From Escherichia phage Phi05_1387 B, in sequence record KM389362.1: a stretch of 4,647 bases of DNA; one strand, 5' to 3'. A program made the translations under genes and the position numbers. Below, piece after piece: positions 1-4,647 of this stretch. Position 1 is the first letter of the stretch, and each line of letters begins with the position of its first letter. The notes beneath the pieces were generated by a model, which searched no databases, was not told where the DNA came from, and saw only the letters and a list, made by a program, of their open reading frames with translations.

Positions 1-500
1 AAGACCAGCAGAAAGCGATTGAGTCAATTAAGCAGGCTGATGCGGCTGTTAAGTTGGCACACGAGAAGTTTTCGGCGTTGGCGGCGGAGAATGCGGGGCT
101 GAAGGCCTTCAAAACCGCCGTTTATCAGCAGATGGGCGTCGGATGTGATGCTCCTGAATTCTCCATTACGACAGGTTTGAGTAACTTACGTCGTTTTGCT
201 GACACACTCCACGCCATTGAACGTGAGTTCTTTACCAAAGAGCTACCTGATGAAGAGCACGAAGGCGAAACATTCAATGAATGTCCACTTAGCTGGGGAA
301 TGAGCGTCGAACAGTACGTTTCCGAGTTTCGCAAATGCCTGGCTGAAGTGCGGGCGCAGGCGTTTAATGACCTTTGCTCGGTGTTCGTTAAGAACGCGAC
401 GGTTGTCGGGCTGGACGATGGCGACATCGTTACGGTGAAAGAAGCGACGGACGCCCTGCTGGATTGTGCGGAACAGCTTCGCAAAGGAGGAAACCAGTGA
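1..500 (+). CDS. Hypothetical phage protein, 5'-truncated by the window edge
   Basis: The reading frame is open from position 3 (DQQKAIESIKQADAAVKLAHEK...) with no stop until TGA at 498-500. The track's TTG start at 54 is probably internal and the true start lies upstream of the window. The product is charged and helix-like. The stop overlaps the next gene's GTG start (GTGA, 497-500). Confidence 0.6.
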   Translation, partial: DQQKAIESIKQADAAVKLAHEKFSALAAENAGLKAFKTAVYQQMGVGCDAPEFSITTGLSNLRRFADTLHAIEREFFTKELPDEEHEGETFNECPLSWGMSVEQYVSEFRKCLAEVRAQAFNDLCSVFVKNATVVGLDDGDIVTVKEATDALLDCAEQLRKGGNQ

Positions 501-1225
501 GCAAGATTGACTATCAGGCACTGCGTGAAAAGGCAGAGAAAGCAACGTGTGGTGTATGGTCGCTCGAATATGGAGAGGGCCGATTTGATGGTGATGATGC
601 GCTAATTCATCGCGAGGCTGCTGGATATATTCCCATTTGCAGAATTGAAGGAGCGCATCCTGAAAGCGGTTTCGATGAAGATTTCCAAATGGAACAGCAG
701 GCAAATGCTGAATTCATCGCCGCAGCCAGTCCGGCTACCATGCTTGCGCTTCTTGATGAACTGGAAGCTCAAAGCAAACGTATCGAAGAGTTGAAGACAA
801 AATCTGCACCAGATTCGTTTGGCATCATCGGTGAAAATATTCGAACACAGGATAATCGAATAACGTCAGACCCTATGTTTTGTGTGTATCAAAAGCGCGA
901 AATCGTTGTTGATGCTGATTATGACTATGACAGGATTGTCTGGGTTGATGAAGATGGCAATGAAGCCAATAAACGCCAAAGTCGTCGTCTCGAACTACTT
1001 CATGAAAACTTTCGGGAACCACCAGAAAAATGGCGGCGCGTTGCTGTGAAAGATATTGATGAATTCGTTACCTGCTGTTTCACCGAACAGGGTTGTAAAG
1101 ACTACCTGGCAGCCAATGGTCACAATCTTCGCTTGCCATTTATATATGTAAATGGCGGTTTCAGGAACGCTGAATATATCGGCATAAGAAACTGGCTTGC
1201 TGGCATTGGCATCAAAGGAGGGTGA
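497..1225 (+). CDS. ead/Ea22-like family phage protein (tentative family call)
   Basis: GTG start at 497 is preceded by GGAGG (486-490) at 6-nt spacing and overlaps the upstream stop. The N-terminus reads MSKIDYQALREKAEKAT. Residues encoded at about 710-796 read EFIAAASPATMLALLDELEAQSKRIEELK, which I recognise as the conserved central motif of lambdoid Ea22-like proteins. Stop is TGA at 1223-1225. The track's TTG at 464 is probably too far upstream. Confidence 0.6.
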   Translation: MSKIDYQALREKAEKATCGVWSLEYGEGRFDGDDALIHREAAGYIPICRIEGAHPESGFDEDFQMEQQANAEFIAAASPATMLALLDELEAQSKRIEELKTKSAPDSFGIIGENIRTQDNRITSDPMFCVYQKREIVVDADYDYDRIVWVDEDGNEANKRQSRRLELLHENFREPPEKWRRVAVKDIDEFVTCCFTEQGCKDYLAANGHNLRLPFIYVNGGFRNAEYIGIRNWLAGIGIKGG

Positions 1226-1226
1226 T

Positions 1227-1514
1227 ATGGCAACTTTGCAGGAATTAATCGACCTGACGCCAGAACAGGAAAAAGCGTGGAATCGCCTTGTGAAGGCTGT
1301 AAAGGATTTCAGGGCAGCCGGAGGAAAGTTTTATAGCGTCCTGGACACGCTGAGCGCATACAACGGCGAGCACGTTGCCAGCATTGATAACGATAAGGGC
1401 TACCACACTGCAAGCGTTTATATGCCTAGCATTGATGCGCCAGGGCTAACCAGTTGGGCTGATGATTGGCACGGCATCACGCTGAAAGATGGCGTTGAAG
1501 TGGATGAGGACTAA
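1227..1514 (+). CDS. Small acidic hypothetical protein (95 aa)
   Basis: ATG at 1227 follows GGAGG (1217-1221) at 5-nt spacing and sits 1 nt after the upstream stop. Product MATLQELIDLTPEQEKAWNRL...GVEVDED has about 17 acidic versus 8 basic residues by my count. The track's TTG at 1197 would overlap the upstream gene and lacks an RBS. Confidence 0.65.
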   Translation: MATLQELIDLTPEQEKAWNRLVKAVKDFRAAGGKFYSVLDTLSAYNGEHVASIDNDKGYHTASVYMPSIDAPGLTSWADDWHGITLKDGVEVDED

Positions 1515-1517
1515 CAC

Positions 1518-2135
1518 ATGACCACTATTACCAAAGAACGTATTGAATTGTTCATTAAAAATCCGCTTGAAAACGGGCTTACTCGTGGCGAACAAATGGA
1601 ACTAGCACGAATTGCACTGGCATCACTGGAACGCGAACAGATTCGCCACGAGCATGCCAAATGGTCTGACTCCACATTTGGCTGCGTTGGCCCCATTGGT
1701 CCACTGAAACACCTCTCAAAAGAGGCACTGGAAGCCGCAGCCGAACCAGACGATCTTAGCGAGTGGGCTGATATGCAGTTTCTGTTGTGGGATGCACAGC
1801 GCCGTGCTGGCATCAGCGATGCTGAAATTACCGTTGCTATGGAAGATAAATTGAAGATCAACATGGAGCGCCAGTGGCCTGAGCCAAAAGATGGTGAGCC
1901 TCGCTTGCACATTAAAGAACCCGGCAACTCTCCGGTAACTCCGGATGGTTGGATAAGCTGTAGTGAGCGAATGCCCCCTCAAGATGATTGGATTTTAATT
2001 TATTCAAAGCACGGCGAGTATATGGCAGGACAGGTACAAGGGGAATACGTGGAGTTGAGCGATGGCACTTTATCGTGGTTAGGGAACGCCTTGTTCTGGA
2101 TGCCGCTACCGGAACCGCCGCAGGAGGCGAAGTAA
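1518..2135 (+). CDS. DUF550-like (annotated dATP/dGTP pyrophosphohydrolase) N-terminal domain fused to DUF551-like C-terminal domain
   Basis: ATG at 1518 follows GAGGA (1506-1510) at 7-nt spacing. The C-terminus ...GWISCSERMPP...WMPLPEPPQEAK (WMPLPEPP encoded at 2097-2120) matches the DUF551 hallmark common in enterobacterial prophages. The N-terminal half (LSEWADMQFLLWDAQRRAGISDAEI) resembles the DUF550 domain. Stop is TAA at 2133-2135. Confidence 0.7.
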   Translation: MTTITKERIELFIKNPLENGLTRGEQMELARIALASLEREQIRHEHAKWSDSTFGCVGPIGPLKHLSKEALEAAAEPDDLSEWADMQFLLWDAQRRAGISDAEITVAMEDKLKINMERQWPEPKDGEPRLHIKEPGNSPVTPDGWISCSERMPPQDDWILIYSKHGEYMAGQVQGEYVELSDGTLSWLGNALFWMPLPEPPQEAK

Positions 2136-2257
2136 TGAACAAGTGCAACGCTCTGCTTTATGCCATGGTGATTGGTTTCGGCCTGGCTGCTGGTATCCGG
2201 GTTTATATTACCTGGGAGTCATTAATCAATCTGGCGTGGAGTGCGATTCGTGGCTAA
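2135..2257 (+). CDS. Small predicted membrane peptide (40 aa), hypothetical
   Basis: ATG at 2135 overlaps the upstream stop (TAATG) and follows GGAGG (2123-2127) at 7-nt spacing. Product MNKCNALLYAMVIGFGLAAGIRVYITWESLINLAWSAIRG has one hydrophobic stretch long enough to span a membrane. Stop is TAA at 2255-2257. Its short length makes it uncertain. Confidence 0.45.
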   Translation: MNKCNALLYAMVIGFGLAAGIRVYITWESLINLAWSAIRG

Positions 2258-2588
2258 ATCCCCCGCAGAACGCAAAGCCGCGCAGCGCGCTCGGCAGTCC
2301 GCCGCCGGTGAGCGCAAAATTGAACTGGTGCTGGATAAGCAGGAGCAGGAAATGCTGGCGCGGAACTGCGCCGCCCGGCGCCCTGGTCGCGATCCCTATG
2401 AAATGTCCGAGTACATCGCGCTGCTGATCCGCCAGGATGATGCACGTGTGCGCGGGCGTATAAAATCGATCAGCAGAAAACGTTGCGGTAAGTGCGGCGA
2501 GAGAGTTCCCGTTAATTCATGCCCGTGTAATGGTGACTCGCAATGCTGGGTGACTAAAGGCTGGCATGAAACGAAATTAATAGTGTGA
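2241..2588 (+). CDS. Small basic protein with C-terminal Cys-rich (zinc-ribbon-like) motif; possibly YlcI/YnfO-like (low-confidence family call)
   Basis: GTG at 2241, or GTG at 2250 which has GGAG (2238-2241) at 8-nt spacing and gives MAKSPAERKAAQRARQ... The product is a charged helix-like region (ERKIELVLDKQEQEMLARNCAARRPGRDPYEMSEYIALLIRQD) followed by C-x2-C-x9-C-x-C-x5-C (CGKCGERVPVNSCPCNGDSQC). It sits immediately upstream of the small terminase gene, where YlcI/YnfO-family genes lie in E. coli DLP12 and Qin. The 5' half is GC-rich. Stop is TGA at 2586-2588. Confidence 0.55.
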   Translation: MRFVAKSPAERKAAQRARQSAAGERKIELVLDKQEQEMLARNCAARRPGRDPYEMSEYIALLIRQDDARVRGRIKSISRKRCGKCGERVPVNSCPCNGDSQCWVTKGWHETKLIV

Positions 2589-2596
2589 CATGTCAC
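2585..2596. repeat. Perfect 12-bp palindrome GTGACATGTCAC overlapping the stop codon of the upstream gene
   Basis: Read directly from the sequence; its reverse complement is identical. It lies at the 3' end of the accessory gene block, about 110 bp upstream of the terS start. Confidence 0.85.
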
Positions 2597-2637
2597 GAGT
2601 AGATTATGCATGATGAATTTGATGGGTTTTGAATACT

Positions 2638-2663
2638 GCCGCCAACTATGGCGGCTTTATTTT
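2638..2663 (+). terminator. Rho-independent terminator candidate
   Basis: A 7-bp GC-rich stem GCCGCCA (2638-2644), loop ACTA (2645-2648) and stem TGGCGGC (2649-2655) are followed by TTTATTTT (2656-2663). It lies in the gap between the upstream gene block and terS. Confidence 0.7.
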
Positions 2664-2667
2664 GCAT

Positions 2668-2698
2668 GGTACTATTACCAAAACGGTAACTATTACCA
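2668..2698. repeat. Tandem direct repeat GGTACTATTACCA / GGTAACTATTACCA immediately upstream of the terS ribosome-binding site
   Basis: The copies are at 2668-2680 and 2685-2698 and are identical except for one extra A. Each has an internal inverted GGTA...TACC. They lie between the terminator and the GGTGG RBS (2700-2704). Confidence 0.75.
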
Positions 2699-2709
2699 CG
2701 GTGGTTATG

Positions 2710-3303
2710 ATGCCTGCTGAACCTAAAACCTATAAACGCAAATCAACGCAATTTAAGCCACTAACAGCAATGCAGGAGGCTTATTGCCAGTCATACATCA
2801 AAACGCCTGAAAACCAGACTCAGGCAGCGATTAACGCAGGATTCTCCCCAAATACAGCGGCAGTTAAAGCCAGTGTCATGATGCGCGATGAACGCATTCA
2901 AAAACGGATTGCCGAGTTGATGGAGGAGCGCAACAAACGAATGCGCGTCAGTGCTGATTACGTTCTCATGCGCCTGGTGCAGATCGACCAGATGGACGTG
3001 ATCGACATCCTCAACGACGATGGGAGCCTTAAACCAATCCGTGAGTGGCCGAAAATCTGGCGCACTACGCTTAGTGGCTTTGATCTGTCATCGACCATCA
3101 TGAACATGAACGAGGATTCGATAGAGACAATCCTCAAAAAAATTAAATGGCCTGACAAGGTGAAGAACCTTGAGCTGATTGGTAAGCATGTTGATGTCAA
3201 CGCGTTCAAAGAACGTCTGGATGTTAATGTGAATGTGACAATTGCTGATCGCATAGCAGCAGCCAGGAAGCGACTCAAAGAACGTCAGGATGGTAATCAG
3301 TGA
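2710..3303 (+). CDS. terS: Terminase small subunit (Terminase_2 / P27-like HTH type, tentative subfamily)
   Basis: ATG at 2710 follows GGTGG (2700-2704) at 5-nt spacing; ATG at 2707 is the in-frame alternative. The N-terminal region (about 2761-2920) reads LTAMQEAYCQSYIKTPENQTQAAINAGFSPNTAAVKASVMMRDERIQKRIAEL, which matches the helix-turn-helix pattern of this small-terminase family. Stop TGA at 3301-3303 overlaps the GTG of the next gene. The track's ATG at 2629 would translate through the terminator hairpin and is rejected. Confidence 0.8.
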   Translation: MPAEPKTYKRKSTQFKPLTAMQEAYCQSYIKTPENQTQAAINAGFSPNTAAVKASVMMRDERIQKRIAELMEERNKRMRVSADYVLMRLVQIDQMDVIDILNDDGSLKPIREWPKIWRTTLSGFDLSSTIMNMNEDSIETILKKIKWPDKVKNLELIGKHVDVNAFKERLDVNVNVTIADRIAAARKRLKERQDGNQ

Positions 3304-4647
3304 CAGATACAGCGTTATCTCCTGAAGAGCAGTTGATCGAGGATATTGCAGGGTTCACTCACGATCCGCTTGGCTATGCCCTCTATGCGTTCCCGTGGGG
3401 GGAAGAGGGGACTGAACTGGCACATGCTACCGGCCCACGTCAGTGGCAGGCTGATGCGTTCCGAGAGATACGTGATCACCTGCAGAATCCAGAGACGCGC
3501 TATCAGCCGCTTATGCTGGCACGTGCTTCGGGTCACGGTATTGGTAAATCCGCATTCATCTCAATGCTGATCAACTGGGGCATGTCCACTTGCGAGGATT
3601 GTAAGGTCGTGGTGACCGCCAACACCGACAACCAGCTACGAACGAAGACCTGGCCGGAAATTATCAAGTGGTCGAACCTTGCTATCACGAAAGACTGGTT
3701 TACCTGTACCGCTACTGCGATGTACAGCAATGATCCTGGGCACGACAAGCGGTGGCGAGCTGACGCAATCCCCTGGTCTGAGCACAACACTGAGGCATTC
3801 GCCGGACTACACAACGAGCGCAAACGCATCATCGTGGTATTCGATGAAGCGTCGAACATTGCGGATCTGGTGTGGGAAGTTGCTGAGGGTGCGCTTACGG
3901 ACGAAGACACTGAGATTATCTGGGTGGCGTTCGGAAACCCTACACGTAATACCGGGCGTTTTCGCGAATGTTTCCGCAAATACAAACACCGCTGGAAAAC
4001 TGCGCAGATTGACAGCCGGACGGTGGAAGGCACTAACAAACAGCAGTTGCAGAAATGGGTTGATGACTACGGGGAAGATAGCGACTTCGTTAAAATCCGT
4101 GTGCGCGGCATATTCCCGGATGCATCTGAATTGCAGTTTATCCCTACCGGACTTACTGACGAGGCAATGAAACGGGTGGTCACCGCTGCGCAGGTTGCAC
4201 ATGCTCCGGTGATAATCGGCGTTGACCCGGCATACTCCGGTGTTGATGACGCGGTGATATATCTGCGGCAGGGGCTGCACAGTAAGGTGCTGTGGACCGG
4301 CAACAAGACCACTGACGATCTGATTATGGCGAAGCGTATCGCTGACTTTGAAGACCAGTACCAGGCTGACGCGGTGTTCATCGACTTCGGTTACGGAACC
4401 GGTTTGAAGTCAATCGGTGATGGTTGGGGGCGTACATGGCAACTTGTTCCGTTCGGTGGCGCGTCTACTGACCCGCAGATGCTTAACAAGCGTGGGGAGA
4501 TGTTCAACTCATGCAAGACATGGCTGAGGCTGGGCGGCATGCTGGATGACCAGGAAACAGCGGACGACCTGTCGGCGGCAGAGTACAAAGTTCGCGTGGA
4601 CGGTAAAATCGTTATCGAACCGAAAGAAGATATCAAGGAGCGGCTTG
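3300..4647 (+). CDS. terL: Terminase large subunit (ATPase and nuclease), 3'-truncated by the window edge
   Basis: Not in the ORF track. The frame is open from GTG 3300 (just after an in-frame TAA at 3294-3296) to the window end, about 449 codons. Walker A ASGHGIGKS is encoded at 3525-3551. Walker B IIVVFDE is at 3828-3848. A nuclease-domain-like acidic motif VIIGVDPAYSGVDD begins at about 4209, with the first Asp at 4224-4226. AGGA (3287-3290) lies 9 nt upstream of the GTG. Confidence 0.9.
   Translation, partial: MTDTALSPEEQLIEDIAGFTHDPLGYALYAFPWGEEGTELAHATGPRQWQADAFREIRDHLQNPETRYQPLMLARASGHGIGKSAFISMLINWGMSTCEDCKVVVTANTDNQLRTKTWPEIIKWSNLAITKDWFTCTATAMYSNDPGHDKRWRADAIPWSEHNTEAFAGLHNERKRIIVVFDEASNIADLVWEVAEGALTDEDTEIIWVAFGNPTRNTGRFRECFRKYKHRWKTAQIDSRTVEGTNKQQLQKWVDDYGEDSDFVKIRVRGIFPDASELQFIPTGLTDEAMKRVVTAAQVAHAPVIIGVDPAYSGVDDAVIYLRQGLHSKVLWTGNKTTDDLIMAKRIADFEDQYQADAVFIDFGYGTGLKSIGDGWGRTWQLVPFGGASTDPQMLNKRGEMFNSCKTWLRLGGMLDDQETADDLSAAEYKVRVDGKIVIEPKEDIKERL

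Follow-up and report, generated by a model that had tools for sequence, protein, structure and literature searches.

In the lambda record, ea22 lies in the early-left region and Q-S-R-Rz precede the terminase genes nu1/A. In that of P22 the ea genes are likewise early-left and 23-13-19-15 precede 3/2, and in that of HK620 ead/Ea22 and DUF551 genes are found between the recombination genes and int. An earlier note took this lambdoid arrangement, with which the three records agree, as the reference for a stretch of 4,647 nucleotides (nt) from Escherichia phage Phi05_1387 B (KM389362.1; the whole stretch is referred to below as the window). The note described ea-type accessory genes running into a terminator and the small and large terminase subunit genes (terS and terL), and it proposed a non-lambda gene order, a mosaic recombination joint or a degraded prophage. 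Our analysis indicates that the window is very probably the early-right/late boundary of an epsilon15-like (Uetakevirus-type) temperate podophage or prophage, with the standard non-lambda layout of that group. It also identifies, at this boundary, a conserved 112-residue protein that is presumed to bind a 12-base-pair (bp) palindrome, GTGAC-N2-GTCAC, and may have a role in the switch to late transcription.

Gene order at the early-right/late boundary

The closest DNA matches of the window are phiV10, TL-2011b, phiv142-3, ZX5, SPN1S and related Klebsiella and Enterobacter phages, and at least 80% of the window is present in 25 E. coli genomes. ZX5 is of the Uetakevirus type, is integrated at the 3' end of guaA and was reported to carry one tRNA (PMC9782041). 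The full annotated maps of TL-2011b, phiV10 and epsilon15 have one gene order in common, in which repressor/cro, replication genes, DUF1064, Eae/Ead/Ea22/DUF551 accessory genes, a gp49-type regulator gene and a rho-independent terminator are followed by terS, terL, the portal through virion genes, tailspike, O-antigen modification genes, holin, endolysin, Rz/Rz1 and attP/int. The lysis cassette is thereby located ~22 kb downstream of the terminase junction in all three of these complete genomes, and no Q homologue is annotated in any of them. An E. coli guaA prophage has the same order over the part examined (int to virion genes). Between terL and the portal operon, this prophage carries a tRNA-Arg gene (26313-26389) and an extra reverse-strand open reading frame (ORF).

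The window is collinear with these epsilon15-like podophages, in which the lysis cassette comes after the tailspike and O-antigen genes, and the non-lambda gene order proposed earlier is thus borne out. From position 2589 onward it is 97.5% identical to phiV10, and positions 2251-4647 are 81-95% identical to epsilon15 and TL-2011b; over terS-terL the nucleotide identity is 97.5% to phiV10 and 81% to epsilon15, and terL, which runs past the window end, is collinear with phiV10 p02. The arrangement that marks the epsilon15 type, with regulator, terminator and operator dyad directly 5' of terS, is present in the window and in 77-78 of 80 related viral contigs, 78 of which have terS 104-467 nt past the regulator gene. 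Genes of the ea type lie in the early-right operon, after the replication genes, in epsilon15 (gp44-47), phiV10 (p46-p53) and the EBJ003 prophage, and those of the window are on the same strand as the regulator gene and coupled to it. The ea cassettes are the variable distal part of the early-right region, where lambda has its nin region, and not part of an early-left operon.

Searches of Pfam, PHROGs and NCBIfam with the ORFs in 1-3303 gave no match to a holin, endolysin, spanin or Q family (Pfam cut-offs for the Q negative were E<=1 for the 112-residue protein and E<=0.01 for the other ORFs), in agreement with the absence of such genes between the accessory genes and terS/terL recorded in the earlier note. 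Since the junction is normal in the relatives of the window, and their lysis genes are found elsewhere, the missing lysis cassette and Q reflect normal design rather than deletion. What had been presented as an anomaly proves, on synteny comparison, to be the standard arrangement of a known phage group.

BLAST homology to four Uetakevirus-type references is unbroken from position 2251 to the window end, and is limited to short patches in 1-2250. The conserved core begins at the first codon of the regulator gene (the 2251 boundary). In 1-2250 there are patches with 91-98% identity to early-left DNA of HK620, P22 and many Stx phages, and the accessory set found there is a combination absent from all records searched (best coverage 81%). 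As judged by sequence comparison, this block is a series of freely exchanged cassettes, the normal variable region of the group.

The similarity of the accessory genes to early-left lambdoid DNA, together with the clear patchwork of 1-2250, is what could be expected if deletion or recombination in a lambdoid phage had eliminated Q and the lysis cassette and joined terminase to early-left ea genes. However, such an event is highly improbable, because the same regulator-palindrome-terminator-operator-terS junction is present in epsilon15, phiV10, TL-2011b, the viable phage ZX5 and 78 of the 80 contigs, terS and terL are of the epsilon15 type and not of the lambda or P22 type, and lysis genes are intact elsewhere in related genomes. 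The mosaicism suggested earlier applies only loosely, to the patchwork that 1-2250 shares with lambdoid and Stx early-left regions, and not to a joint that removed Q or lysis genes. The suggested degraded, non-functional prophage remnant is also very unlikely. Although a small gene between palindrome and terminator has shrunk to 8 codons, and the window in full is matched by no single record, every ORF is open, the genes are coupled by stop/start overlaps and have ribosome-binding sites, and the short form of the spacer occurs in 38 of 67 measurable contigs and in the plaque-forming phages phiV10 and epsilon15. Two considerations temper the epsilon15-type assignment itself: the window ends inside terL, the positions of its own lysis cassette, int and att being taken from its relatives, and no public record covers more than 81% of it. 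Deposited genomes already document this gene order, within which the window is a new combination of cassettes.

The 112-residue protein and the GTGAC-N2-GTCAC palindrome

The earlier note had the accessory genes running straight into the terminator, with nothing regulator-like in between. That description does not hold, as two conserved ORFs, for a 40-residue peptide and for the 112-residue protein, lie between them, and the region 2135-2708 also contains the palindrome, the terminator and operator-like dyads. The proposed lack of a late regulator is doubtful, given that a conserved, predicted DNA-binding protein and its candidate site are located at exactly this point.

The 112-residue protein belongs to the epsilon15 gp49 / phiV10 p55 / N15 gp46 family, which combines a predicted ribbon-helix-helix (RHH) with a Cys-rich (zinc) region, and its gene is the first of the block that is conserved in all Uetakevirus genomes. 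The RefSeq name of the homologues in epsilon15 (gp49), TL-2011b and phiV10 is 'transcriptional regulator'. The protein has 786 close homologues in enterobacteria, and the gp49 family forms 153 clusters at 50% identity in a library of 1.8 billion proteins. Alignment of 63 diverse members reveals that C79 and C82 are invariant, and that R8, R13, E54, L59, P87, G95 and C99 are nearly so. The Cys spacing is C-x2-C-x7-9-C-x5-8-C, of which the first CxxC alone never varies; the Cys residues after it are single and variably spaced. In a confident AlphaFold2 model (pLDDT 89.9), a basic helix at the N terminus precedes a strand-helix-helix unit whose second helix is long, and a Cys knuckle and a short helix at the C terminus come after it; on the basis of this predicted beta-alpha-alpha fold, the protein is a member of the RHH (CopG/Arc/MetJ) superfamily.

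No Pfam family matched the 112-residue protein at E<=1, including the Q families Antiterm, Phage_antitermQ and Phage_antiter_Q; a Q-like fold was not found in the model, and in a viral structure library the only match was a fragment of the same protein. Identity with Q was rejected on both sequence-family and fold grounds. The C-terminal half of the protein (helix, CxxCGxx[LV]P knuckle, helix) aligns to residues 6-65 of F-plasmid TraR, but the similarity is weak (hmmsearch E 0.05; hhalign probability 46%, E 2e-4). In contrast to TraR/DksA proteins, the second Cys pair is not CxxC, and the N-terminal RHH is absent from TraR. Membership of the TraR/DksA family was rejected in view of the weak similarity, the different Cys pattern and the absence of a structural match.

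In the window, the TGA stop codon of the regulator gene forms positions 2-4 of the palindrome GTGACATGTCAC, and in 77 of 80 epsilon15-like contigs the stop codon likewise lies inside the palindrome. The epsilon15 genome has three perfect copies (2142, 19517 and 39612), compared with 0.03 expected per genome. Of the phiV10 sites (2262, 19493 and 39101) two are perfect, and the regulator-stop copy has one mismatch and is split by the record ends. A physical genome end at the palindrome was considered and rejected, as the phiV10 record appears merely to have been opened there, after the stop codon of its last gene. The epsilon15-like sites are positioned at the regulator stop, 4-6 nt from the hairpin that follows terL, and 1-2 nt ahead of the one behind the last structural gene, and each has the order palindrome, hairpin, U-tract along the direction of transcription. 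All three are 1-45 nt upstream of a terminator (a random position would fall within 60 nt with a probability of 0.01-0.02). Epsilon15 and phiV10 differ in the flanks and in the sequences of the hairpins, implying that the motif and its placement are the conserved part.

The site at the stop codon recurs with more divergent family members (identity to the window protein in parentheses): it is GTGACTGGTCAC in N15-like contigs (35%; 49 of 49, one of which has GTGACGGGTCAC), GTGACACGTCAC in the metagenomic contig L087 (32%), GTGACGCGTCAC in both L138 (30%) and a P2-like Yersinia phage (about 44%), and GTGACAGGTCAC in L142 (39%). L141 (43%) has a degenerate site with one mismatch, 2 nt past its TAA stop. 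L139/140, L143 and Vibrio phage K303 have no site at the stop, yet contain 2-3 perfect copies nearby. All of the other phage types covered thus have the site together with the family, in most cases at the stop codon of the gene. The N15 copies are at 8551, 13238 and 19270; besides the stop copy, one is inside repA and one lies between gene 33 and its terminator. In L139 tandem palindromes (12475 and 12498) are 23 bp apart at a convergent gene junction, and in L138 (13902) and K303 (35942) a palindrome is found 15-19 nt before the start codon of an unrelated (Terminase_4) terS. The central dinucleotide is fixed within the epsilon15-like (AT) and N15-like (TG/CA) clades and varies among the L138 and K303 copies. 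Lambda and P22 have no family member and no copy of the palindrome.

A regulator gene 85% identical to that of the window was observed on contig L052 (10001-10339), where it follows a 695-residue ORF and ends in a TAG stop without a palindrome at that position. A terminator follows the gene, the contig has no epsilon15-type terS, and three palindromes are located elsewhere in the locus.

The half-sites of the palindrome are invariant and display no compensatory changes, which argues for protein-DNA recognition by a symmetric dimer rather than for an RNA stem; the 112-residue protein is the presumed binder of GTGAC-N2-GTCAC, as a dimer. It is improbable that the palindrome instead serves as an RNA or translational element by the next Shine-Dalgarno sequence, or as the site of a host factor such as MatP. 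An RNA stem would be of 4 bp only, and the sites are confined to family-encoding genomes, some of them past a hairpin or inside genes. The half-sites of matS are the same as those of the palindrome. However, the palindrome is 12 bp long, not 13, its spacing is always 2 nt and not 3, and sites with N3 number zero in epsilon15-like genomes and one in K303. In contrast to MatP, the 112-residue protein has a zinc domain and lacks a four-helix bundle or coiled coil, and homology to MatP was rejected (hhalign probability 0.2%, BLASTP E 13). Neither the function of gp49/gp46 nor the palindrome motif is described in the literature searched, where the protein-site module thus appears to be undescribed; the primary genome papers on epsilon15, phiV10 and N15 were outside that search.

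Possible roles at operon boundaries

The small phage zinc proteins P2 Ogr, P4 Delta and Mu Com activate late functions; the sites of Ogr are TGT-N12-ACA upstream of promoters, and Com binds RNA. The 112-residue protein is also a small (predicted) zinc protein, and a member of its family ends the early operon of a P2-like Yersinia phage; homology to Ogr, Delta or Com was not detected, as judged by the absence of Pfam matches alone. L138 and Vibrio phage K303 have the regulator as their final early-right gene, succeeded by holin/lysozyme, HNH, terS and terL genes, such that the lysis cassette follows the regulator, as in lambda. In L139/140 the regulator gene is upstream of holins and lambda-type Nu1/gpA, and in the P2-like Yersinia phage it closes the early operon, after gpA. 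Pfam gave no Q-family match in any of these loci, nor is a Q gene annotated there. The chief reason to propose a role in the late switch is that the regulator is found, in several phage types, in the Q slot of lambda.

The epsilon15-type boundary resembles that of lambda and P22 in having a small (here predicted) DNA-binding protein as the last conserved early-right gene, a (predicted) DNA site at the 3' end of this gene, and an intrinsic terminator before the late genes. It differs in that the 112-residue protein has no sequence or fold similarity to the Q proteins of lambda and P22, and in that the candidate site is perfectly palindromic, with further copies at other terminators and, in the case of N15, within a gene. 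Moreover, a weak -35/-10 match aside, no defined promoter or pause is associated with the palindrome, and epsilon15-type lysis genes are not downstream of it.

On this basis the RHH-zinc protein probably gates the passage of RNA polymerase at operon boundaries. It would be made late in the early operon and bind to DNA sites by terminators; the bound protein would then let transcription read through the terminator into the packaging genes, as a functional analogue of Q. Such a positive read-through switch is the role that we favour, albeit tentatively and as something short of probable. The distance from the palindrome centre to the U-tract is 30-38 bp at the two terminator-adjacent sites in epsilon15 and phiV10, a spacing at which a protein on the DNA could reach the upstream side of a polymerase that has paused at the terminator. 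A broader and rather doubtful extension is that the gp49/gp46 family and GTGAC-N2-GTCAC constitute a widespread, undescribed phage system that controls transcription at operon boundaries and replaces Q in epsilon15-like, HK97-like Vibrio, lambda-like and P2-like phages without Q, the protein being tethered to DNA near intrinsic terminators and where the packaging and lysis genes start.

Several observations do not fit easily with a read-through switch. N15 has a Q-like gp40 as well as the family member gp46, and one N15 site is inside repA, implying that the family cannot simply be equated with 'the' late activator. In epsilon15-like genomes, two sites out of three fall at the ends of convergent genes, a setting in which read-through would seem detrimental, and in related contigs with a 314-nt intergenic region ~230 nt separate the regulator-stop site from the terminator. 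Late activation could instead be the task of a PerC-like activator encoded in the early-left operon. The interval from the terminator to terS yielded no convincing sigma-70 promoter, and the link between protein and palindrome is one of co-occurrence alone. The co-existence of gp40 and gp46, the convergent sites and the repA site would all be accommodated if the RHH-zinc protein acted at the palindrome as a negative roadblock or insulator, independent of orientation. It would then reinforce termination at operon ends, also for the strand without a U-tract, and shut early transcription out of the late genes, which would use their own repressor-controlled promoters. We rate this role only slightly below that of a read-through switch. 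Against it, it would be strange if the final early gene held back the genes that are due on next, the regulator occupies the Q slot in several phage types, and the near-constant 30-38 bp spacing at the sites after terL and the last structural gene suggests contact with a paused polymerase more than a simple block. The literature searched yielded no description of the timing of late expression in epsilon15-like phages, nor of RHH-zinc late activators, and nothing relevant on MatP/matS in phages.

The intergenic spacer and the remaining genes

The terminator between the regulator gene and terS, with the hairpin GCCGCCAACTATGGCGGC followed by TTTATTTT, is conserved, and its epsilon15 equivalent is the annotated rho-independent terminator of the early-right operon. 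The two dyads downstream of it each have one mismatch to the 17-bp consensus ATTACC-N5-GGTAAT. In the epsilon15 record the equivalent dyad, and identical ones at the left operator (OL) and elsewhere, are marked as repressor-binding. Counting sites with one mismatch or none, phiV10 has 9 and epsilon15 has 11. All are intergenic and are located at OL/OR and 5' of terS, the portal operon, the tailspike gene, the lysis cassette and the first accessory gene (phiV10 positions listed: 86, 3251, 20876, 24691, 31952, 32014, 32726 and 35131). The presence of operator-like dyads before each late unit suggests that the prophage repressor silences every late unit directly, and such control may be part of the reason why no Q-type cascade is evident.

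At several dyads, a conserved CATATGTGGTT-like motif is located ~45 nt (roughly 30-50 nt) to the 3' side and is followed by -10-like hexamers. The units concerned are those of the portal, tailspike, lysis and first accessory genes (phiV10 ~3300, ~20925, ~24740 and ~35115; epsilon15 ~2985, ~19945, ~24755 and ~35950), and the epsilon15 tailspike copy is CATATAAGGTT. No copy of the motif precedes terS. A late-promoter element and an activator site are both possible identities for it.

In 27-28 related contigs, about a third, a gene of ~70 residues (MPKIRYDLEDM...YDEFDGL*) lies between the palindrome and the terminator; it starts 9 nt past the palindrome, has the same flanks as the 8-codon ORF of the window and gives an intergenic length of 314 nt. 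This gene is deleted in the window, phiV10 and epsilon15. A leader peptide or attenuator function for the 8-codon ORF was rejected, as the ORF is what a deletion left behind and epsilon15 does not have it. The palindrome is overlapped by a weak -35/-10 match, GTGACA-18-CATGAT, and the terminator comes next; this spacing is retained neither in epsilon15 nor in the 314-nt variant. No RNA element or tRNA was detected in the intergenic region (Rfam at E<=1; ARAGORN), and the z-score of its predicted RNA fold is only -2.3, dominated by the terminator.

Table 1. Features of the window, with positions counted from its first nucleotide
Feature	Position	Strand	Details
Ea22-like accessory gene, 3' part	3-500	+	Truncated by window start; phrog_492, phrog_368, phrog_614, E 1e-14 to 3e-21
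Ead/Ea22-domain protein	497-1225	+	N-domain PF13935, E 4.2e-23; C-domain phrog_3205, E 2e-50
95-residue accessory ORF, function unassigned	1227-1514	+	phrog_2821, E 7e-66, full length
DUF550 (dATP/dGTP pyrophosphohydrolase) + DUF551 fusion	1518-2135	+	PF04447, E 6.6e-42; PF04448, E 2.9e-10
40-residue hydrophobic (membrane) peptide ORF	2135-2257	+	phrog_5525, E 8e-30, full length
112-residue regulator gene (predicted RHH + zinc)	2250-2588	+	phrog_536 'transcriptional regulator', E 6e-54
Perfect 12-bp palindrome GTGACATGTCAC	2585-2596	.	Holds TGA stop of regulator gene
Spacer between regulator gene and terS	2589-2706		118 nt
8-codon ORF MHDEFDGF*	2605-2631	+	Remnant of gene of ~70 residues
Intrinsic terminator	2638-2663	+	Stem GCCGCC/GGCGGC, then TTTATTTT; terminator scan
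Two repressor-operator-like dyads, ATTACCAAAACGGTAAC and ATTACCACGGTGGTTAT	2674-2690, 2692-2708	.	Adjoin start of terS
Small terminase subunit gene terS	2707-3303	+	PF03592, E 1.4e-29; phrog_51, E 2e-57
Large terminase subunit gene terL, 5' 449 codons	3300-4647	+	phrog_5902, E 2e-100; phrog_2, E 3e-48

ORF calls and family searches place all genes of the window on one strand, densely packed and translationally coupled (Table 1). The Ea22-like gene at the window start has patchy nucleotide matches of 94-97% to Stx and lambdoid phages. Its TGA stop and the GTG start of the Ead/Ea22-domain gene share a GTGA overlap, and the ATG of the 95-residue ORF is 1 nt past the stop that precedes it. The 40-residue ORF, which is conserved and is annotated in an E. 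coli prophage, overlaps the end of the DUF550/DUF551 gene (stop codon) and the beginning of that for the regulator; the only match of the peptide is phrog_5525, with no holin family match in Pfam, PHROGs or NCBIfam. PADLOC gave no match that would identify the accessory ORFs or the regulator as defence or anti-defence genes. The G+C content is 0.60 across the regulator gene (2101-2550), compared with 0.43-0.55 on either side, and the change coincides with the 2251 boundary.

The apparent anomaly of the window is the textbook layout of another temperate-phage lineage and, in this respect, an ordinary finding. It helps to keep such prophages from being labelled 'defective' or 'recombinant' on the sole ground that Q and the lysis genes lie away from terminase. 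The by-product is of more use. Epsilon15-like phages serve in reporter and biocontrol applications against E. coli O157 and Salmonella, and for this group the conserved 112-residue protein and the 12-bp site beside three operon-end terminators provide a concrete candidate for the late switch, and the protein-palindrome module could be a portable, sequence-addressable part for termination or antitermination.

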